A stretch of DNA of 64,000 bases from a candidate division WOR-3 bacterium (GTDB lineage Bacteria; Hydrothermota; Tepidihabitantia; SM23-42; JAOAFX01): positions 6,430-70,429 of the forward strand of contig JBDRWI010000002.1 of the NCBI GenBank assembly GCA_039802265.1. Direction: 5' to 3'. The position numbers and the translations under genes are program-made. The notes under the pieces were generated by a model. That model had not been told where the DNA came from. It searched no databases and saw only the letters and a list, made by a program, of their open reading frames with translations. Shown here one piece after another: positions 9,455-19,107 of the stretch; the stretch's first letter is position 1, and each line of letters opens with the position of its first letter.

Positions 9455-11519
9455 CATTCTATTTATTTTTCTCTTACCCTATGAAGACTATTTTTATAAA
9501 AAAAATTATCTTGAGGCAATTCGTTATGCAAAACTGGCTTATAAAATTTTTTTAGAAGATGAAACCTTATATTATTTAGGCATAAGCGAACTGTGTCTTG
9601 ATAGATTGCCCGCGGCAATGGCAAATCTTGAGGAATTGACAAAAAAGAAGGAAGACGCCAGCTTTTATCTCGGAATAATCCATTATCGACTTGGTAATTA
9701 CATCAAGGCAATGGCTTATATGAATGATGCGCGTGATGTATTTCTTCCTAAGTACTACTATCTCACTCTCATCCATTTAAAAGACCGCGACCTAAAAGAG
9801 GCAGAAAAATACCTGAATTCAGTGGCAGATTCATATTTAAAGGAAACCATTTCGCAATGGATAAAAAATTACCAAACACTTGTTGATGCAAAAAACGCAT
9901 TTATTGATATGGATTATCAGCGCACAATAGAGCTAATTAACAAAGTTGAAGATTTTTTTGGCTATAAAGAAATTGGATTGGCACTGGCTTACGAAAGACT
10001 CGGTGATTATCAAAAGAGTCTTATTTTTTTAGATACTGTGATACGCAATCCTCCATCTTATGGGCTGTTATTGAACGCCACATACAACGCCGGGCGAATA
10101 GAGTATGCATTAAGAAATTATAAGCGGGCAGAAAGATATTTGAGGGATTATCTTTCTACTCAGGAGAATAATGCGGCAAAATTTCTTTTAGGCAAAATTT
10201 TTATGGAGGAAGGAAACCTGGATTCAGCCAGTATTTACTTTAAAGACTTACCCGATACCATTGATGAATACCTTTTCTATAAAGGGCGTATTGACTATTT
10301 TCGGGGAATGCTGGCGAGCGCCGAAGAAAGATTGTTATTGCATCGTGAATATTTCCCGAATTCTTTTTATGCCGACAGTACAGTTTATATACTGGGAGAA
10401 ATAAATTTTAAACAGGGCAAATACAGACTGGCAATAGATTACTGGACCGACTTGATAAATTTATATCCAAATTCAAATTATGCGGCGGTTACGGCAAAGA
10501 AGATTGGCGATGCCTATTTCAATTTGAAAAGATACAATGATGCACTTGAGTTTTACAAAAGGGTTAAGGATTTTGGTCCGCAAAATGAATTGAAATTGGA
10601 GACTGAATTGAAGATACTTGAGACCAAATATCAACTTGGGCTGTTTAATTCTTTAATTGGTGCCCTGAATCGATTTATAGAGACATATTCCGATTCTGTA
10701 AATGCCCGGGATTTTGTTGCCGCAGTAAATTTAAGAATTGCAATGATTCTCTTTGAGAAAGAGGAATATTACTCTGCCCTTGAAAAACTCAATCAGCTGA
10801 TAACCAAATATTCAGATTTATCCGTGGCTAGAGACGCAATATTACAAAGGGCAAAAGTTTTTCGCAAAATTGGAGATAAGAATGGAGAGAAGGCTTCTTT
10901 GAAAATACTATTGGAAAGGAAGGATATTAGAGAATTGTACCCATATGTGGTAAATGAACTGGGTACAATCTATAAAAATGAAATGAAATACGATTCGGCG
11001 CTTTATTACTACAATTTATTGCTGAAAATAGAGATGTATCGCGAGATTGCTCTTTTAGAAATTGCCCGAATCTATAATTCACTCGGTAGATATGAAGAAG
11101 CCGAATTGGTGATCGAGCGCTTTATTAATGAATATCCCAATTCATCATTGATTTTTGATGCATATATTCTTAAATCGGAAACTATTAAAAATCAAGGCGA
11201 TTACAATAAGGCGGTAAATGTATTAAAGGAATTGAGCGACAAGTACGGACCAAAGCCCGAGGTATTTCTCAGAATCGCTGATATCTATGTTGATAATCGT
11301 AATTATCAGGCGGCCCGGGATTATTTTCTAAGGGCAAGCGAGTATTTCAAGGAAAATAGGGATGACGCTGCCCGGTCTTTGATTCGTGCCGGTGATGTTT
11401 CGTTGATTATGGGTGACATAAAGATTGCCAAGGAACTTTATTTAAAGGCGGCGCTTTTTGCACTTTCTATTGATGTTAAACAAGAGGCAAGCAAAAAATT
11501 GACTTCTGTAAATGAGTAG
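9447..11519 (+). CDS. Tetratricopeptide (TPR) repeat protein.
   Basis: Repeated 34-residue W/LG/Y...A...F...P motifs throughout, e.g. 'LGNYIKAMAYMNDA' and 'QGKYRLAIDYWTDLINLYPNS'. It overlaps the upstream and downstream genes by 8 nt each. Confidence 0.75.
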   Translation: MSSILFIFLLPYEDYFYKKNYLEAIRYAKLAYKIFLEDETLYYLGISELCLDRLPAAMANLEELTKKKEDASFYLGIIHYRLGNYIKAMAYMNDARDVFLPKYYYLTLIHLKDRDLKEAEKYLNSVADSYLKETISQWIKNYQTLVDAKNAFIDMDYQRTIELINKVEDFFGYKEIGLALAYERLGDYQKSLIFLDTVIRNPPSYGLLLNATYNAGRIEYALRNYKRAERYLRDYLSTQENNAAKFLLGKIFMEEGNLDSASIYFKDLPDTIDEYLFYKGRIDYFRGMLASAEERLLLHREYFPNSFYADSTVYILGEINFKQGKYRLAIDYWTDLINLYPNSNYAAVTAKKIGDAYFNLKRYNDALEFYKRVKDFGPQNELKLETELKILETKYQLGLFNSLIGALNRFIETYSDSVNARDFVAAVNLRIAMILFEKEEYYSALEKLNQLITKYSDLSVARDAILQRAKVFRKIGDKNGEKASLKILLERKDIRELYPYVVNELGTIYKNEMKYDSALYYYNLLLKIEMYREIALLEIARIYNSLGRYEEAELVIERFINEYPNSSLIFDAYILKSETIKNQGDYNKAVNVLKELSDKYGPKPEVFLRIADIYVDNRNYQAARDYFLRASEYFKENRDDAARSLIRAGDVSLIMGDIKIAKELYLKAALFALSIDVKQEASKKLTSVNE

Positions 11520-13341
11520 GCGTATTTACATTATTGGTAAGGAGCCAGACTGGTTGAAATCACTCATTCTTAAAAAGATCGTCAGCGTATGTGAGAGTGA
11601 ACCAGAGGCAATTTTGATTTTTGAAAAAATACCTTCGGTTGCAGAGATCATTAAAAAGTTTCGGATAAGATATATCCCAATAATCAGTCAGGTAGAATTA
11701 GGAGAAATGGAGGGAGTTTTTAACTTACCCACGACCCATCCCGAGAATTTTTTAATTTCCCTGCTTGAGGCATTAACCTGGGAGCGAGAAAGAAATCCAC
11801 TCACCGGTCTTCCCGGTAATGAGGCAATAAATAGAGAGATTGAGTTTAAGATATTAAATCAAAACGGCTACTGGCTCAGTTATGTTGATCTGAATGACTT
11901 TAAATTTTTTAATGACCAGTATGGTTTTGAAATGGGGGACCGTCTCATTTTTCATACCGCCAGGATAATAAAAGACAATGCCGGTAACAATTTTGTTGGA
12001 CACATTGGCGGTGATGATTTTGTTTTTATTATTCCCCAGAATAATTCCGAGATTTTAGATTCAATCTGTCGGGAATTTGATGACTCATTGAAATATTTCT
12101 ACCCGGAGGGGGACCGGGACAGAGAAGAATTTCAGGGAATAGACCGATTCGGGAGGGATTATAAATTCGGCCATGTTCATCTTGCCATTGTGGTATTAAC
12201 AAAGAGATACGAAAATCTTAAGAAATTAAACTATGCCACTGCCTATTTAAAAAAGATAAGTAAACAAAGAAGTAAAATTGAAAAGCGGAGTCTCTGGCTT
12301 TCCGATAATACCGTTGCGATTGGACATCGCGACGACCTGCTCAGGATATTACAGGGAAATGACCGAACTGCCAAAAGGGCCGCTATTGAAGTTCTTGGTG
12401 AAATTGCGGAACCGGATAACCTTGATTTGTTTGTTGAACTTTTAAGGAATAAAGATTTTTTGATTCGCAAGAGTGCGGTCTATGCGCTTGGTAAGATTGG
12501 CAAATCCGAAATTTTGCCGTATATTCTCAATACATTAAACGACCCCTCACCCCATGTCCGGATGAGGGCAGCCGAGGCGCTTGGTTATTTTTACAGGGAC
12601 GCTGTAGCTGATATTTTAGTTAATCTTCTTAACGACCCCGATTGTTATGTGAGGATCGCGGCAATAAATAGTATCGGTCGTTTGAAATTGAAGTCAGCAA
12701 TTCCTCGACTTATTAAAACTAATGACGAAAGAATCATCCCCAGTATTTTAAGAGTCCTTGCCGAATTGGGAGACGATTCTGCACTGGATTTCATTCAGGC
12801 GAAATTAAATAAAAATAGATTTTCGGCATTGGCGATTGATGCACTTGGTAGAATCTACAGTTCACGTTCACTGGCAATTCTATTTGATGTCCTATCCAGC
12901 AGGAATTTCGCCCAGCATCGCCATAGGATTTATCGTGCAATTTATAATCTGAGCCGGATGAAGTCCCTGAAAGAAATAATTAAGGCAAATATCGGGCTGA
13001 TTTATGATGGCCTCCGGGATAGCAAGCCCTACTATGTCATAATGACCCTTTACGAAATTGGCGATGACACGCGTGGTGATGAGGTTAAAAAATTCCTTTA
13101 TGGAAAAGATATATTTATGCGCCGGGCAGCTATTCTCTATCTGAGTAATAATAAAAAAAATCTCAAGGTGCTTGCCGATATCCTTTTGCAAGACCCATTA
13201 CCATCTATCCGACAGACAGCAGCCGATATCCTGGCGAAATTCGGCAAAGCCGCATTACCCTATCTGAGAAAGGCATTGAAAGACCGGGATTTTTCAACCA
13301 GACAGTCCGTAATCAGGTCAATAATGGCAATTTTATTCTGA
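11512..13341 (+). CDS. GGDEF-family domain with a variant GGDDF motif, fused to PBS-lyase-type HEAT repeats.
   Basis: 'NPLTGLPGNEAINREIEF...YVDLNDFKFFNDQYGFEMGDRLI...GHIGGDDFVFII' fits the GGDEF fold, but the signature reads GGDDF. The C-terminal half has repeated '..VR..A..ALG.IG' HEAT-like units. Confidence 0.65.
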   Translation: MSRRIYIIGKEPDWLKSLILKKIVSVCESEPEAILIFEKIPSVAEIIKKFRIRYIPIISQVELGEMEGVFNLPTTHPENFLISLLEALTWERERNPLTGLPGNEAINREIEFKILNQNGYWLSYVDLNDFKFFNDQYGFEMGDRLIFHTARIIKDNAGNNFVGHIGGDDFVFIIPQNNSEILDSICREFDDSLKYFYPEGDRDREEFQGIDRFGRDYKFGHVHLAIVVLTKRYENLKKLNYATAYLKKISKQRSKIEKRSLWLSDNTVAIGHRDDLLRILQGNDRTAKRAAIEVLGEIAEPDNLDLFVELLRNKDFLIRKSAVYALGKIGKSEILPYILNTLNDPSPHVRMRAAEALGYFYRDAVADILVNLLNDPDCYVRIAAINSIGRLKLKSAIPRLIKTNDERIIPSILRVLAELGDDSALDFIQAKLNKNRFSALAIDALGRIYSSRSLAILFDVLSSRNFAQHRHRIYRAIYNLSRMKSLKEIIKANIGLIYDGLRDSKPYYVIMTLYEIGDDTRGDEVKKFLYGKDIFMRRAAILYLSNNKKNLKVLADILLQDPLPSIRQTAADILAKFGKAALPYLRKALKDRDFSTRQSVIRSIMAILF

Positions 13342-14188: not shown

Positions 14189-15745
14189 ATGGAAGAACGG
14201 CTGAAGAAATTGCAGAAGCTGAAGGAATTGAACATCAACGCCTATCCTTACCGGTTTGATAGAACCCATACATTCTCCCAGATAAAAGGAAAATTTGAAG
14301 AACTCTCAAATTCACAATTCAGGGTCAAAACAGCGGGAAGAATAATTGCTATCCGGGGACATGGGAGGACCATATTTGCCACCTTAAATGATGAAAATGA
14401 AAACATTCAGGTCTATCTAAGAGAGGCAGACCTTAAAGAAGATTTTGCGCTCTTTGAAAACTTTGATATCGGTGACTTTATTGGTGTGGAAGGTAAGGTC
14501 TTCAAGACACGGACCGGTGAAATAACCATCCTTGTGGAAAGTTTCGTACTCCTTGCAAAATCACTACGACCGCTACCTGAGAAATGGCACGGATTAGAAG
14601 ATATAGAAATCAGATATCGTAAAAGATACCTTGATTTAATTGCGGATACGGTTATTTTCAAGTGTAACGATTGCGGCCATGAATTCGCCTGTGTGGAAGT
14701 CGGCGAAATAAGATGCCCAGCGAGAAAGGATAAAACCACTAATGAAAGATGTGGTTCTAAAAATATTAGAAAAATCTCAATGAGTCCGCGCGAGGTATTC
14801 AAAATGCGTTCAAAGGTCATCTCACTTCTCCGAGATTTTTTTAATAACCGAGGATTTCTTGAAGTAGAAACCCCTGTCTTACAGCCAATATACGGTGGGG
14901 CATCTGCCCGGCCTTTCAAGACTTATTATAATGCCCTTGACCAGGAAATGTACTTACGAATTGCTGATGAACTTTACCTGAAAAGATTAATTGTTGGTGG
15001 ATATGAGAAGGTATGGGAATTATGCAAGGATTTCCGGAATGAGGGGCTTGATAGATTTCATAATCCAGAATTTACAATGATTGAGGCATATCAGGCATAC
15101 ACAGATTATAACGGAATGATGGAACTGGTTGAAGAATTGATGGAATATCTGGTTAGAAATCTTTATTCTGATTACAGAATTTCTTTTCAGGGAGAAAGCG
15201 TAGAAATAAAGAGACCATTTACAAGGATAAAATATACTGAAGTATTGAGTGAAAAACTGGGTGTTGATATACTCAAGATTTCCGAAAAAGAACTAAATGA
15301 TTTATGCACAAGATATGGGATAAAAACAGAAGGTCAGGCAATCGGATACAAGATTGATAAGTTATTCAGTGAACTCGTCCAGAGAGATTTGATTGAACCG
15401 ACCTTTGTTATTGATTATCCTAAAATAATTTCGCCCCTGGCAAAGGAACATCGGAATAATCCTTCGCTTGTGGAAAGATTTGAACTGGTTATTTTTGGTT
15501 TAGAGATTGCCAATGCCTTCTCAGAGTTGAATAACCCGATAGAGCAGCGTAAGAGATTTGAGGAACAGCTTGCATATAAAGAAGAAGGAATTGCGGAGAT
15601 AGACGAGGACTTTCTTGAGGCACTTGAATATGGAATGCCGCCGACCGGAGGACTTGGTATAGGGGTGGACCGCCTGTGTATGATTCTTTTAAACCAGTCA
15701 TCAATCCGGGATGTAATTCTGTTTCCTCAATTGAGAAGGGTGTAA
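14189..15745 (+). CDS. lysS: Lysyl-tRNA synthetase, class II, with an inserted Cys-rich segment of about 43 aa.
   Basis: 'RYRKRYLDLIAD', 'FLEVETPVLQPIYGGASARPF' (motif 2 region), 'FRNEGLDRFHNPEFTMIEAYQAY' and 'GGLGIGVDRLCMILL' (motif 3). Confidence 0.9.
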   Translation: MEERLKKLQKLKELNINAYPYRFDRTHTFSQIKGKFEELSNSQFRVKTAGRIIAIRGHGRTIFATLNDENENIQVYLREADLKEDFALFENFDIGDFIGVEGKVFKTRTGEITILVESFVLLAKSLRPLPEKWHGLEDIEIRYRKRYLDLIADTVIFKCNDCGHEFACVEVGEIRCPARKDKTTNERCGSKNIRKISMSPREVFKMRSKVISLLRDFFNNRGFLEVETPVLQPIYGGASARPFKTYYNALDQEMYLRIADELYLKRLIVGGYEKVWELCKDFRNEGLDRFHNPEFTMIEAYQAYTDYNGMMELVEELMEYLVRNLYSDYRISFQGESVEIKRPFTRIKYTEVLSEKLGVDILKISEKELNDLCTRYGIKTEGQAIGYKIDKLFSELVQRDLIEPTFVIDYPKIISPLAKEHRNNPSLVERFELVIFGLEIANAFSELNNPIEQRKRFEEQLAYKEEGIAEIDEDFLEALEYGMPPTGGLGIGVDRLCMILLNQSSIRDVILFPQLRRV

Positions 15746-16944
15746 TGAACACTGAAGTCTTTGTTGCACAACGGTATCTACTGTCAAGAAATCGCAAATT
15801 TTTTTCTCTCTCCGCCTCCATCGCCATTGGTGGGATTTTTGTTGGGGTTAGTGCTTTGCTCATTACCCTTTCAATAATGAATGGATTCCAGAATGAATTG
15901 CGGCGAAGAATTCTCGGGGGGACCCCACACATAATAGTCCGGCGATTTTTTAATGAGCCTCTTGTTGAATATCGTGAGATCATGGAGAAGTTAGAAAATT
16001 TCCATTTTATTAAGGCAAAGGCACCATTTATAATCACCAAATCCCTGGTCCGGAATAGGAGGAGTGTCGATGGCGTGATAATCAAGGGAGTTGAAAGTGA
16101 GCTTGAGAAAGGAATTACTGAGGTGGGGAAAAATATTATTGATGGTGCTTTTGATTTAGAAGAGGGTTGTGTTATTGGAGTTGAACTCGCCCGGAGCCTG
16201 AAGGCAAGTGTTGGAGATACCCTGATAATAACCTCTCCTTTCGTTGAGCAACTCGGGCTATTGCCGCGTTCCAAAAGAGTTATACTTAAAGGAATCTTTG
16301 ATTTGGGTATGTATGATTATAATTCAACGATTTTATATATGAATATCAAGGATGTTCAGGTACTATTTGAAATGCAGAACGCGGTTAGCGGTATTGAGTT
16401 GAGAGTGGATGATGTGTATAAGGCACCATATTACTCAAAGATTATTGAAAAGGAAGTCGGTTATCCCTATCTGGTTCAGGATTGGGTTAAGACCAATCAT
16501 TCAGTTTTCGCGGCATTAAAATTAGAAAAGATTGTAACATTTATTGTTCTGACACTGATTGTGGTTGTTGCTGGATTCAACATCGTAGGAATGCTTGTGA
16601 ACATTGTTAAAAAAAAGGTGAAGGAGATAGGTATACTTCGTTCATTTGGTTTCACTGCAAATCAGATTATGAAGATTTTCATATATTTAGGAACAATTAT
16701 GGGATTTATTGGGACGGGAATGGGTGTTTTCTTTTCTTTTTTTGCCTGTCTTTTGCTTAACCAATATCGTTTTGTAAATTTACCCGGAGATGTCTATTTT
16801 ATTCAGACCCTTCCGGTTGAGATGTCACTTGTAGATTTTATTGTCGTAGCTGGTGCAGCAATAATGATAAGTTTTTTTGCTACAATCTATCCGGCAATCA
16901 GGGCTGCGCGGCTTGTGACGGTTGAGGCATTGAGGAATGAGTGA
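15745..16944 (+). CDS. LolC/LolE-like lipoprotein-release ABC transporter permease (FtsX/MacB family).
   Basis: Start 'MNTEVFVAQRYLLSRNRKFFS' inside a TAATG overlap with lysS. N-terminal TM, a periplasmic domain, and three C-terminal FtsX-type TM helices. Confidence 0.75.
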   Translation: MNTEVFVAQRYLLSRNRKFFSLSASIAIGGIFVGVSALLITLSIMNGFQNELRRRILGGTPHIIVRRFFNEPLVEYREIMEKLENFHFIKAKAPFIITKSLVRNRRSVDGVIIKGVESELEKGITEVGKNIIDGAFDLEEGCVIGVELARSLKASVGDTLIITSPFVEQLGLLPRSKRVILKGIFDLGMYDYNSTILYMNIKDVQVLFEMQNAVSGIELRVDDVYKAPYYSKIIEKEVGYPYLVQDWVKTNHSVFAALKLEKIVTFIVLTLIVVVAGFNIVGMLVNIVKKKVKEIGILRSFGFTANQIMKIFIYLGTIMGFIGTGMGVFFSFFACLLLNQYRFVNLPGDVYFIQTLPVEMSLVDFIVVAGAAIMISFFATIYPAIRAARLVTVEALRNE

Positions 16945-17611
16945 GATTCTATTAGCAGAAGGGATTCATAAGACCTATTATTTGAAAAACGAGGTAATCC
17001 ATGTCTTACGCGGTGTTGATCTCGTGGTTAAAAGGGGTAGTTTTGTGGTAATCTATGGCCCATCGGGAAGTGGTAAATCTACTCTTTTAAATATTCTGGG
17101 GAGTCTTGACAAACCGACCAGCGGTAGGGTAATTTTTGATTCCTGTGTTCTCTTTAATCATAGCGATGCGGAACTATCACAAATTAGAAATAAAAAAATT
17201 GGATTTGTCTTTCAATTCCATTATCTTTTACCTGAATTTACTGCACTGGAGAATATAGCCCTGCCAGCACTATTAAACGGAACTCCAAAAAGGGATGCCT
17301 ATAAAAAGGCAGCGGAACTTTTAGAAGTTTTAGGAATGGCGGATAAGAGAACCCGTCGTCCCGACGAATTGTCAGGTGGTGAAAGGCAACGGGTGGCGAT
17401 TGCCCGTGCCCTCATTAATGAACCAATCTTGATCCTTGCGGATGAGCCGAGCGGTAACCTTGATGAGGAAAATAAGAATAAACTGATGGATGTTTTTATC
17501 GATCTAAAAAATAAGGACCGGGCAATTGTTCTGGTTACTCATTCACTGGATATTGCAAAGTTAGGGACTGAGGTGTATAATTTGAAAGAAGGCAGGTTAC
17601 ATGTTATGTGA
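16937..17611 (+). CDS. lolD: ABC transporter ATP-binding protein, LolD-like.
   Basis: Walker A 'GPSGSGKST'. ABC signature '[15 protein letters not shown]'. Walker B '[13 protein letters not shown]'. Confidence 0.85.
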
Positions 17612-18077
17612 TGATTGTAAAAAAAATCCGGCATCCATCTATTTTAAGGATGCCTCCTACGGAAAGATTAAAGAGTTGCATCTTTGTGAGGAATGTGCTA
17701 AGAAGCGAGGAATTCTCTTAGATAAAAAGCTTTCTCCCCTTGAGGTTCTTCAAAAATTGTTGAAGGAATATAACCGCCAGGATGAGCAGATAATCTGTCC
17801 GGTTTGCTTTTTGTCTCTTGCGGAATTTAAAAAGTTTGGAAGATTTGGCTGTAGTAATTGTATTGCGGTCTTTGAGCCCTATATCAAAAATCTTATCAAA
17901 GAGGTCCAGGAGAGCAATCGCCATATTGGAAAGAGACCTGGAAGCAGGCAACATAAGGCGCTTGAGATATTTAAACTGCGTGAAGAATTGAGAAAGGCAC
18001 TGGAAAAAGAGGCTTATGAAGAGGCGGCAAAGATAAGGGACCGATTAAAGGAATTGGGATTCGAGAATGTTGAATAA
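17601..18077 (+). CDS. mcsA: McsA-like protein-arginine kinase activator (two zinc ribbons plus a UvrB/UvrC motif).
   Basis: 'CDDCKK...CEEC' and 'CPVCF...CSNC'. C-terminal 'EEAAKIRDRLKELG' UVR motif. It overlaps lolD and mcsB by 11 nt each. Confidence 0.7.
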   Translation: MLCDDCKKNPASIYFKDASYGKIKELHLCEECAKKRGILLDKKLSPLEVLQKLLKEYNRQDEQIICPVCFLSLAEFKKFGRFGCSNCIAVFEPYIKNLIKEVQESNRHIGKRPGSRQHKALEIFKLREELRKALEKEAYEEAAKIRDRLKELGFENVE

Positions 18078-19107
18078 TATTAAGTGGTTAATATCACCCG
18101 AGATGGCAGAAAACTGCGAGGAAAAGGAAATCGTTGTATCAACGCGGATAAGACTGGCTCGGAATCTTGCAGGAATTCCCTTTGAAATAAAAATGAAACA
18201 GAAGGATGCCGAATATCTAATTCAAGTAGTGCAATCAACAATAACCGGGAAATTAAAGGGAAGATATCTCTTGATTCAGAAACTTACACCACTTGAGCGG
18301 GAATCACTCCTTGAATCGCACCTCGTCTCTCCAACATTTGTGAAGGCTGATCGCCCATCAGCCGTATTTATCAGCGAGAAAGGAGATATTTCAATAATGG
18401 TTAACGAAGAAGACCATCTGAGAATACAGGGGCTTGCCTGTGGGCTCTCTCTAACGAATACCCTTCTATCGGTCTTTGAGGTGGAGGAATTCCTTGGTGA
18501 AAGCCTTGGCTATGCCTTTAGTGAGGAATATGGTTTTATCACTTCCTGTCCTACCAATTTAGGTACCGGTATGAGGGTTTCGGTTCTGCTCCATCTGCCA
18601 GGGCTTGTTTACACAAACGAAGTAGATAAAATTTTAAAGAGTGCTGTTAATCTTGGAATGGCCGTGCGCGGACTGTTTGGAGAAGGAACTGAAATAAAGG
18701 GTAATCTCTTCCAGATATCAAATCAAAGAACCCTTGGATATACCGAGGAAGAGTTGGTTCAGAATATCAATAAATTCACGAAGATGGTGATCGATGTGGA
18801 GAAAAAGACAAGGAATCTAATCTATGAAAAGGCAAGGTATGAATTTGAAGACAAAATCTACAGAAGTCTGGCAATACTTACCTCAGCCAGGATTCTCAGT
18901 AGTGATGAGACGCTGGGGCTTCTCTCTGCAGTCAGGCTGGGTATCGGTATGGGAATAATCAAAAATATTAGTATAGATACAATAAATGAGATTATGCTTG
19001 TATCAAGGCCCGGTAACATCCAGTTCTATTTTGGCGAAATTCTTGAAGAGGAAGAACGGGATGTCAAACGGGCAGAGTATGTGCGTAAAAAACTACAGCC
19101 AAATTAA
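18067..19107 (+). CDS. mcsB: Protein arginine kinase McsB (ATP:guanido phosphotransferase family).
   Basis: Phosphagen-kinase active-site signature 'CPTNLGTGMR'. About 345 aa, typical of McsB. Confidence 0.85.
   Translation: MLNNIKWLISPEMAENCEEKEIVVSTRIRLARNLAGIPFEIKMKQKDAEYLIQVVQSTITGKLKGRYLLIQKLTPLERESLLESHLVSPTFVKADRPSAVFISEKGDISIMVNEEDHLRIQGLACGLSLTNTLLSVFEVEEFLGESLGYAFSEEYGFITSCPTNLGTGMRVSVLLHLPGLVYTNEVDKILKSAVNLGMAVRGLFGEGTEIKGNLFQISNQRTLGYTEEELVQNINKFTKMVIDVEKKTRNLIYEKARYEFEDKIYRSLAILTSARILSSDETLGLLSAVRLGIGMGIIKNISIDTINEIMLVSRPGNIQFYFGEILEEEERDVKRAEYVRKKLQPN

Follow-up and report, generated by a model that had tools for sequence, protein, structure and literature searches.

The 64-kb stretch of DNA from a candidate division WOR-3 bacterium analysed here (the window) contains lysS, the gene of a class II lysyl-tRNA synthetase (LysRS), and the product of this gene carries a Cys-rich insertion between its anticodon-binding and catalytic domains. 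The insertion is real, conserved and very rare. The positions of the gene, of the insertion and of the regions that surround it are collected in Table 1. Throughout, LysRS that have the insertion are called carriers, the window LysRS is Q, and its relatives in the databases are designated by protein (P0001 to P0024) or by locus (L numbers).

Table 1. Features of lysS and of its insertion in the window (residue and codon numbers are those of the window LysRS)
Feature	Position	Strand	Basis
lysS, class II LysRS, 518 amino acids (aa)	14189..15745, stop codon included	+	Open reading frame (ORF) and hidden Markov model (HMM) matches
Haplotype block, codons 121-240, whose phylogeny tracks presence or absence of the insertion and not the backbone	14549..14908	+	Trees
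Linker (hinge) helix, residues 134-152 (GLEDIEIRYRKRYLDLIA), directly before the insertion	14588..14644	+	AlphaFold2
E137 codon, charge-reversed linker residue (equivalent of human K221)	14597..14599	+	Co-varies with the insertion
Recently exchanged block with the insertion, ~98% nucleotide (nt) identity to the lysS of P0003 (L083)	14610..15126	+	Per-base comparison, sliding windows
Insertion T154-M198, ~45 residues, predicted Cys4 zinc-ribbon-like mini-domain	14648..14782	+	Absent from relatives; AlphaFold2
First knuckle C159-N-D-C162, then G-H-x-F	14663..14674	+	C, C, G and F invariant in 8 aligned sequences; kept in P0004
C168, fifth invariant Cys, strand 2	14690..14692	+	Predicted strand 165-169, at the end remote from the knuckle
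Split second knuckle C176-P...C188-G-S around a variable β-hairpin loop (ARKDKTTNER)	14714..14752	+	C, P, C, G and S invariant
Junction dipeptide S199-P200 in place of E-V	14783..14788	+	Alignment of carriers and non-carriers
Motif-1 helix, residues 200-220, directly after the insertion	14786..14848	+	AlphaFold2; PF00152 match begins at 200

The insertion and its place in the enzyme

The protein scores well above the cutoffs of two full-length bacterial LysRS models, TIGR00499 lysS_bact (566.4 bits, cutoff 427.6) and NF001756 (629.6, cutoff 468). The Pfam domains are found where they are expected, with PF01336 (the OB anticodon-binding domain; 59.5 bits, cutoff 27) at residues 46-122 and PF00152 (the class II core; 295.5 bits, cutoff 25) at residues 200-515, and the three class II motifs fall in invariant alignment columns (motif 1, ...GFLEVETP229; motif 2, FRNEG, 282-286; motif 3, GGLGIGVDR, 487-495). 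Its best solved relatives are bacterial LysRS with 39-45% identity, the enzyme of Thermus thermophilus (9slz) standing at 45%. Judged by its sequence, the window protein is a bona fide class II LysRS, and the atypical length of its hinge is no ground for excluding it from the family. We infer lysine-specific aminoacylation of tRNALys from orthology and from its being the sole lysS of the window, since no second copy was found within the 64 kb; no tRNALys gene was found within the window either.

The insertion occupies the turn that joins the linker helix to the motif-1 helix, i.e., the junction of the two domains. The first-pass annotation had pointed to a Cys-rich segment at this junction, and the location holds, except that its start had been set at 14641 when the in-frame start is 14648 (T154). 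The peptide that it quoted, TVIFKCNDCGHEFACVEVGEIRCPARKDKTTNERCGSKNIRKISMSPRE, is present in the ORF translation, flanked by ...RYRKRYLDLIAD and VFKMRSKVISLL; it counts 49 residues and not the 48 given. Its five Cys (C159, C162, C168, C176 and C188) are all there in the translation, to be compared with three in the remaining 469 residues of the protein. With respect to the nearest insertion-free orthologs the net gain is 44 residues and the dipeptide at the junction has changed from EV to SP. The alignments with structures in the PDB are all split in two (query residues ~3-153 and 199-517), no solved LysRS, AspRS or AsnRS covers residues 154-198, and the T. thermophilus enzyme has a single residue opposite this whole segment.

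Within the insertion the Cys are arranged in two knuckles and one additional residue. A profile search of the PDB with the insertion returned generic knuckle matches only, and the first knuckle is the sole part of the insertion that they cover. The second knuckle has the form C-P-x10-C-G-S, with 11 residues between the two Cys (9 in P0007, due to a 2-residue indel), and the loop that separates them is the most variable part of the insertion in the alignment of 8 carriers. At the DNA level, the distal junction of the insertion and the first codons of the motif-1 helix fall within an inverted repeat of 15 nt (14764-14778 and 14832-14846; 93% complementarity, spacer of 53 nt). The repeat is AT-rich, and chance could account for it.

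Rarity, predicted fold and conservation

A simple way to look for the insertion in other enzymes is to measure the spacing of the hinge, from RY(L/A)DL to FLEVETP. This spacing is 28 (29 in one case) in all of 80 LysRS genome loci from many phyla, which were taken from the matches listed in a genome-contig scan and are not evidence of the absence of the cassette from GTDB genomes. It is also 28 in 87 WOR-3-like relatives, and 28 or 29 in some 117 further fragments (short LysRS pieces, retrieved with a 122-aa query). A spacing of 72 (or 70) appeared in nine carriers only, the window LysRS included, and in none of the about 280 others surveyed. Taking together all the sequences compared, the insertion is missing from 112 related LysRS and from about 200 diverse ones. 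The closest database relatives are labelled candidate division WOR-3. Eight of them, P0001 to P0008 (77-93% identity to the window LysRS), all have the insertion, and from P0009 onward (477 aa) it is cleanly missing, with ~75% identity overall and ~83% outside the segment. The 499- and 543-aa forms of the protein differ merely in the upstream start call.

A catalogue of the insertion modules of aminoacyl-tRNA synthetases does not list a zinc module for LysRS-II or subclass IIb (PMC10810186). Our literature searches gave no report of a zinc ribbon in class II LysRS, and none linking WOR-3 with synthetases; no publication was found for 9slz, the structure of T. thermophilus LysRS with tRNA. Together with the split PDB alignments and the spacing survey, this bears out the initial impression that characterised class II LysRS offer no equivalent of the insertion. 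No homolog of the insertion by itself was found either. An exhaustive profile search of 1.84 billion protein representatives produced one spurious eukaryotic C2H2 match, restricted to FKCNDCGxxF, and in a pattern scan of JGI metagenome contigs none of the 181 pattern matches was confirmed. A word-index search with the alignment of the module scored nothing, which for a query of 49 aa does not count as evidence.

Such a patchy distribution at a conserved site of an essential gene is reminiscent of inteins, and all the carriers come from metagenome assemblies, so that an artefact (misassembly, or a frameshifted or intron-like region) or a selfish element has to be weighed. We consider this explanation hardly credible. 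The identical protein is encoded on a second contig (Logan SRR28530383), with 99.7% identity over 5087 nt, and at least six further assemblies supply the eight other carriers, making nine sequences from at least seven assemblies, with P0004 present on 4 contigs. Misassembly, which had been raised at the outset as what might undo the observation, does not fit these independent copies. Moreover, synonymous sites are saturated among the carrier copies and the frame and the five Cys are nonetheless retained, i.e., conservation is in frame and at the protein level.

Two kinds of selfish element were considered and rejected. Inteins have at least ~130 aa, an N-terminal Cys, Ser or Thr, a C-terminal His-Asn followed by Cys, Ser or Thr, and the conserved blocks A, B, F and G. 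The insertion, with 45 aa, is too short, it ends in ...KISMS-PRE without the C-terminal His-Asn or the splicing blocks, and no intein or Hint Pfam match was obtained even at E<=10. In-frame miniature elements of the RPE type exist in multiple copies per genome and have terminal inverted repeats or a target-site duplication. Here, terminal or flanking repeats were not found, and the 64-kb window (as DNA or as protein), the JGI metagenome contigs and the 1.84 billion protein representatives yielded no second copy. No compositional anomaly was found at the insertion.

The nearest known family is that of the small FmdB-type ribbons. Zn_ribbon_8 (PF09723) aligns to the insertion end to end (profile positions 6-40 of 41) with E=0.015 and 15.7 bits, below the cutoff of 34.4, and TIGR02605 (CxxC_CxxC_SSSS) gives 12.5-13.6 bits for three insertion variants, below its cutoff of 31.3. 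The order of motifs is the same, (F/Y)-x-C-x-x-C-G-x-x-F...C-P...C-G-S followed by a β-strand. The difference is that the CPxCG of the family has 2 residues between the Cys, against the 11 (or 9) of the cassette. FmdB proteins are also free-standing, whereas the cassette is embedded in an enzyme and has an extra invariant Cys. The pattern F-x-C-x2-C-G-x2-F...C-P-x10-C-G-S of the insertion reads, then, as a putative FmdB-like ribbon whose second knuckle has been split by a β-hairpin loop. Other weak matches, all below threshold, were to the profiles of RpoP, TFIIS, the zinc domain of HypA and the FeS4 domain of desulfoferrodoxin.

AlphaFold2 predicts with confidence a small four-strand β-hairpin domain between the helices 134-152 and 200-220. 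The predicted local distance difference test score (pLDDT) of the insertion is 80-88 in the full-length model and 78 when the module is modelled alone, and the short strands fall at 154-159, 165-169, 179-181 and 193-195, and also at ~185-186. In a Foldseek search the top matches were all Cys4 ribbons, none of them significant (the MCM N-terminal zinc domain, HypA, Rpb12/RpoP, reverse gyrase, rubredoxin and many phage proteins of the FmdB family). By these strands each of two hairpins has a Cys pair at its base, C159/C162 in one and C176/C188 in the other, with C168 apart, and in this model the two pairs are the likely metal ligands. The description of the segment as zinc-ribbon-like in the first-pass annotation is backed by the weak profile match, the model and the sub-threshold fold matches, and the metal site itself is putative.

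The same data could be read as a reversible redox- or metal-sensing switch of the hinge, where the ribbon would bind zinc, a rubredoxin-like Fe or an Fe-S centre, and oxidation or loss of the metal would unfold it, loosen the hinge and shift the enzyme from aminoacylation towards the synthesis of diadenosine tetraphosphate (Ap4A). There are five invariant Cys, one above the need of a structural zinc. The C-P that closes the spacing Cx2Cx5Cx7CP also occurs in ferredoxin-type motifs, rubredoxin and the desulfoferrodoxin FeS4 domain are among the weak matches, and WOR-3 bacteria are generally anaerobes. The insertion is also located in the hinge region, the site of open/closed control in human LysRS (PMC11878792). 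Still, we regard the switch as very doubtful. What is predicted is a common two-hairpin ribbon in which C168 stands apart from the remaining four Cys, and the genes linked to lysS (a lolC/E-like ABC transporter, mcsA and mcsB) do not include a redox-related partner.

Whatever its role, the insertion has evolved under purifying selection. The ratio of nonsynonymous to synonymous substitution rates (dN/dS) is ~0.08-0.12 in the insertion and 0.055-0.066 in the rest of lysS, at synonymous sites that are saturated between divergent carriers. A dN/dS of about 0.1 and the retention of the Cys in spite of this saturation indicate that the insertion is a translated and selected part of the protein. In the alignment of 8 sequences (P0004 left out) 21 of the 49 positions are invariant, all five Cys among them, and these five are kept in 9/9 carriers. 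The invariant residues are mainly of the core and turn type (F, G, P, V, M, C), which fits with a structural role, and the conserved surface residues are few (E170, K195, S197 and T154 only). Binding of RNA had been suggested among the possible functions of the module. Its net charge of 0 to +3 and its variable exposed loop argue against a dedicated RNA-binding finger, and a strongly basic finger of this kind is not supported.

Mosaic inheritance of the cassette

If the insertion were a marker of a clade, carriers should be found together in trees of the rest of the protein. This is not the case. In the tree of the LysRS backbone carriers appear scattered among non-carriers, and they were monophyletic in 0/100 bootstraps. 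We have also built trees of lysS DNA with seven carriers and three non-carriers, taking codons 1-100 plus 300-518 as the backbone. These trees recovered the pairs P0005 (with) and P0009 (without), P0006 (with) and P0019 (without), P0008 (with) and P0024 (without), and Q and P0007 (both with the insertion), and carrier monophyly was again absent (0/500 bootstraps). The tree of the downstream lolC/E-like gene shows the same pairs where testable (P0008 is not in this tree), and the types of upstream synteny agree with them; locus and synteny are alike with and without the insertion. It had been proposed that an alignment across the phylum could reveal a lineage-specific insertion. Among the sequences compared the insertion is indeed seen in the WOR-3 group only, and within it presence varies between sister lineages.

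The picture is reversed close to the insertion. In the 75 codons that flank it (the insertion itself excluded) the carriers become monophyletic in 360/500 bootstraps. At the same time, the synonymous-site identity of backbone sisters, otherwise 0.62-0.68, falls in these flanks to the background, 0.40-0.47. Since carriers are monophyletic in the flanks and not on the backbone, the cassette must have moved between backbones by homologous recombination. Multiple independent deletions were considered as the origin of the patchy distribution and rejected: deletions would leave flanks that resemble those of the sister, and the flanks of the non-carriers group together instead, away from their backbone sisters.

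Individual sequences illustrate the exchange. In P0002 residues ~104-222 are Q-like within a backbone that resembles that of P0009, and P0001 combines a P0003-like N terminus with a Q-like C terminus. Q and P0003 are 93-100% identical over codons ~121-315, and elsewhere Q is ~70% identical to P0003 and P0004 (71% in the downstream gene). The block shared with P0004 covers 14610-15012, with 93-100% identity over codons 121-255. Cassette-bearing and cassette-free hinge blocks are hence old allelic classes that have been shuffled by homologous recombination, in some cases very recently. The cassette has not spread clade-wise but as an allelic block of 0.3-0.5 kb on several lysS backbones within one WOR-3 subgroup. 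Chimeric assembly offers no explanation for the deep mosaic pattern, which is found without near-identical sequences, and it is also unlikely for the most recent blocks, given that P0004 is present on four contigs.

Recombination in lysS is not restricted to the cassette. Q and P0003 share further near-identical tracts (~97-98%) at 15350-15453 and 15539-15670, between stretches of 50-70% identity, and in this population the gene is a multi-breakpoint mosaic independently of the cassette. P0003 and P0004 (L083 3001-4740 and L090 3001-4740; 579 aa) have in addition an extra insertion of ~58 aa within the catalytic core, in its helical insertion subdomain, at about window position 15248. It resembles a tandem duplication of the adjacent unit of ~45 aa (GVDVFNLSVDEINKYCKNYGL...KIDYLIKRLV versus SVDVLKVEEEFLNQFCKRYNI...KIDKLFSELV).

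A recent transfer of this sort invites comparison with the resistance alleles known in other essential genes. The ribbon could be a docking or protection surface under diversifying selection, binding a protein or blocking an inhibitor or toxin directed at LysRS, and spreading as a mosaic allele. This would account for the very recent transfer of a ~0.5 kb cassette block between lineages that are ~70% identical in the flanking DNA, and for the long coexistence of both allele classes on interleaved backbones. Nevertheless, nothing points to a partner or an inhibitor, a long stretch of sequence separates the insertion from the motifs of the active site, the conserved surface residues are the few named above, and there are recombination tracts in lysS unrelated to the cassette. 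We consider this reading highly improbable.

The tRNA-facing hinge and the role of the insertion

To glimpse what the insertion may do, we have used human LysRS as a reference for the element that it adjoins. In the cryo-electron microscopy structures of the human enzyme with tRNALys3, the linker (residues 208-220) reads base 37 and the D-arm, K221 touches the D-arm, and K223, E224 and R228 hold the acceptor arm of the tRNA (PMC11878792). In the human protein the hinge also has an open/closed switch that turns off aminoacylation (PMC11878792). By our own sequence mapping, WHGL-E137-DIEIRYRKRYLDLIAD of the window LysRS aligns with HFGL-K221-DKETRYRQRYLDLILN of the human one, and the linker helix G135-A152 corresponds to human G219-L236. 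The point of insertion is nine residues past R144, the equivalent of human R228, which would make the module emerge at the inner corner of the tRNA-binding face.

Several residues around this point vary together with the insertion. The most conspicuous is residue 137, which is E (8) or D (1) in 9/9 carriers and K (62), R (41) or T (9) in the 112 non-carrier WOR-3-like LysRS; the D of one carrier means that acidity has outlasted a substitution at this position. In other phyla the position is variable (K/Q/T/R/A/S/E) and an acidic residue there is not unprecedented. Residues 199-200 are S, N or G followed by P in 9/9 carriers, versus E or K followed by V, I or L in 27/27 non-carriers; residue 153 is D in 6/9 carriers and always N in non-carriers; and residue 118 is K in 2/9 carriers versus 23/27 non-carriers. 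That the variation at 137 (E/D versus K/R) is bound to the class in spite of synonymous saturation suggests selection over mere linkage. With a nearly neutral module and an acidic residue 137, the hinge of carriers is less basic than that of non-carriers.

A different variant of the same linker was seen in LysRS of Gemmatimonadota, Chloroflexota and others, in which the place of LPEKWHGLxD is taken by a segment with ~13 more residues, e.g., LPFGKVETDAETGERTVHSGFSDQE. These enzymes have RYADL instead of RYLDL, and the segment equals the reader of base 37 and the D-arm of human LysRS (PMC11878792). The variant was found at loci L001, L003, L004, L006, L015, L017, L019-L021, L025, L026, L028, L035, L040, L041, L049, L051, L052 and L079.

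The covariation matters for one alternative, according to which the insertion is a near-neutral decoration. A zinc ribbon able to fold by itself would have been captured a single time, in a surface turn that tolerates it, and would contribute nothing to the function of LysRS. It would persist because mutations that unfold it would harm an essential enzyme, and its patchiness would reflect ordinary recombination. Close relatives do manage without the cassette, its conserved positions are nearly all structural, its charge is close to neutral and its surface loop variable, and the mosaicism of lysS at 15350-15453 and 15539-15670 indicates that recombination is general and not directed at the cassette. 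However, the perfect class-specific reversal of charge at 137 and the changes at 199-200, 153 and 118 suggest adaptation of the host protein, and several backbones have kept the cassette until synonymous sites were saturated, with a dN/dS of ~0.1. The newest exchanged blocks, 98-100% identical across lineages that are ~29% diverged, also contain it. On balance we judge a decoration unlikely, though it deserves to be taken seriously.

The explanation that we favour, while seeing the case for it as evenly poised, is that the insertion is a zinc-stabilised brace of the hinge that reshapes the tRNA-facing surface of the linker and is accessory to aminoacylation. The ~45 residues would form a folded, metal-stabilised ribbon, most likely Zn-Cys4, inserted in the turn between linker and motif 1, with C159 and C162 as a classic CxxC knuckle, C176 and C188 as a second knuckle opened by the variable β-hairpin, and C168 as an extra Cys. 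The ribbon would pack beside the linker helix, whose human counterpart contacts the D-arm and the acceptor arm of the tRNA. Such a brace would fix the geometry of the anticodon-binding and catalytic domains and give the linker a new surface towards the tRNA. The host protein would have co-adapted by the change of K/R137 to E/D and of EV199-200 to SP, and partly by that of N153 to D and the loss of K118. As sister lineages, with ~85% nt identity in the neighbouring DNA, do without the insertion, the cassette is probably not required for aminoacylation; it looks like an optional accessory and not like a new kind of enzyme.

Several points weigh against the brace. The carrier sequences number only 9. 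Residue 137, at a distance of only 16 codons, belongs to the linked block and could have hitch-hiked with the insertion. The fold and HMM matches are all non-significant, with E values of 0.05-0.13 for the best folds and HMM scores below the cutoffs. The full-length AlphaFold2 model departs from the crystal structures by a root-mean-square deviation of ~17 Å (TM score ~0.5), which makes its arrangement of domains unreliable. The geometry of the Cys, the packing of the ribbon on residues 137, 118 and 153 and its closeness to the tRNA are all putative. Finally, a near-neutral module, an exposed loop that varies and the lost positive charge at 137 would argue against a gain in electrostatic affinity for tRNA.

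Compared with the bacterial enzymes of known structure (T. thermophilus 9slz, Geobacillus stearothermophilus 3e9h and Escherichia coli 1bbu) the window LysRS has in common the OB domain, the linker helix and class II motifs 1-3, and it shares its gene neighbourhood with the insertion-free WOR-3 orthologs. What sets it apart from a typical bacterial LysS are the 44-45 extra residues in a turn of nearly invariant length and the acidic residue 137. A parallel may be drawn with the bacterial ribosomal proteins that, in work by Makarova and colleagues from 2001, reportedly come in C+ (zinc-ribbon-containing) and C- (ribbon-free) forms. These are likewise translation proteins with Cys4-ribbon and ribbon-free forms that are phylogenetically interleaved via horizontal exchange. 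They differ in that the fold is kept and the Cys are lost, often in zinc-switched paralogs, whereas here a single orthologous locus either has or lacks the entire domain.

Cys-rich metal modules are already well known in synthetases. The Cys-rich ZF and CP3 modules of class Ia and the "insertion 1" ribbon of the class II glycyl-tRNA synthetase (GlyRS) also vary among lineages and are often near the tRNA, and Cys ligands are not universally conserved in such modules (PMC10810186). The class Ia and GlyRS modules are inside catalytic domains, ancient and broadly distributed, whereas the LysRS cassette is at the hinge and in nine sequences. Three features are unusual here: the site, in the nearly length-invariant hinge of subclass IIb; a residue matching a tRNA contact that seems to have co-adapted; and a spread by recombination in the manner of a cassette. 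The insertion abuts the same structural element as the linker/hinge of human LysRS (residues 207-237), where phosphorylation of S207 acts as a switch and opening of the hinge changes function (PMC11878792). The human enzyme, regulated by phosphorylation, has no insertion at the corresponding point (N237/D238), and to grant the WOR-3 ribbon a switch-like role would be speculation.

The subclass IIb hinge is among the most length-invariant features of these enzymes and sets both the docking of the tRNA and the geometry of the two domains, and yet a whole putative metal-binding domain is tolerated there. Enzymes with and without the cassette, at the same locus and with ~83% protein identity, provide a natural experiment on hinge architecture, recognition of tRNALys, stability and possibly non-canonical activities. 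They also show that a module of the size of an indel in an essential housekeeping gene can act as a recombining allele and not as a clade marker, which calls for caution in the use of insertions as phylogenetic signatures. One may go further and imagine a metal- or redox-responsive latch of the hinge, a prokaryotic counterpart of the S207 phospho-switch that would choose between charging and, e.g., Ap4A synthesis, or else a module protecting from a LysRS antagonist. Balancing or positive selection would then keep both allele classes across species boundaries and drive the recent transfer. We hold this to be improbable; a regulatory metal or redox switch, if true, would be a new mode of control of a bacterial synthetase.

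Regarding the neighbourhood, the stop codon of lysS overlaps by 1 nt the start of a lolC/E-like permease (MacB_PCD + FtsX), the region concerned being 15743-19107. Then come an ABC ATPase, an mcsA-like UVR-motif protein and the mcsB arginine kinase, an order kept in all related loci. The C terminus of LysRS is ...QLRRV in the window and in P0007, and ...RREDAR, with a 10-nt overlap, in the others. Upstream of lysS the genes differ by lineage and three synteny types can be distinguished. One has SNase, ABC, FecCD and periplasmic binding protein genes, another a LUD-domain gene, and the third has pairs of BrxC/BrxD-like AAA ATPase genes (a BREX-associated family) directly upstream (L081 1953-4470, L088 101-1378 and L089 433-2953). 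Further upstream in the window (11512-13341) there is a gene for a 609-aa protein with a GGDEF-type domain and a long array of HEAT repeats, in which the signature is GGDDF and not the canonical GG(D/E)EF.

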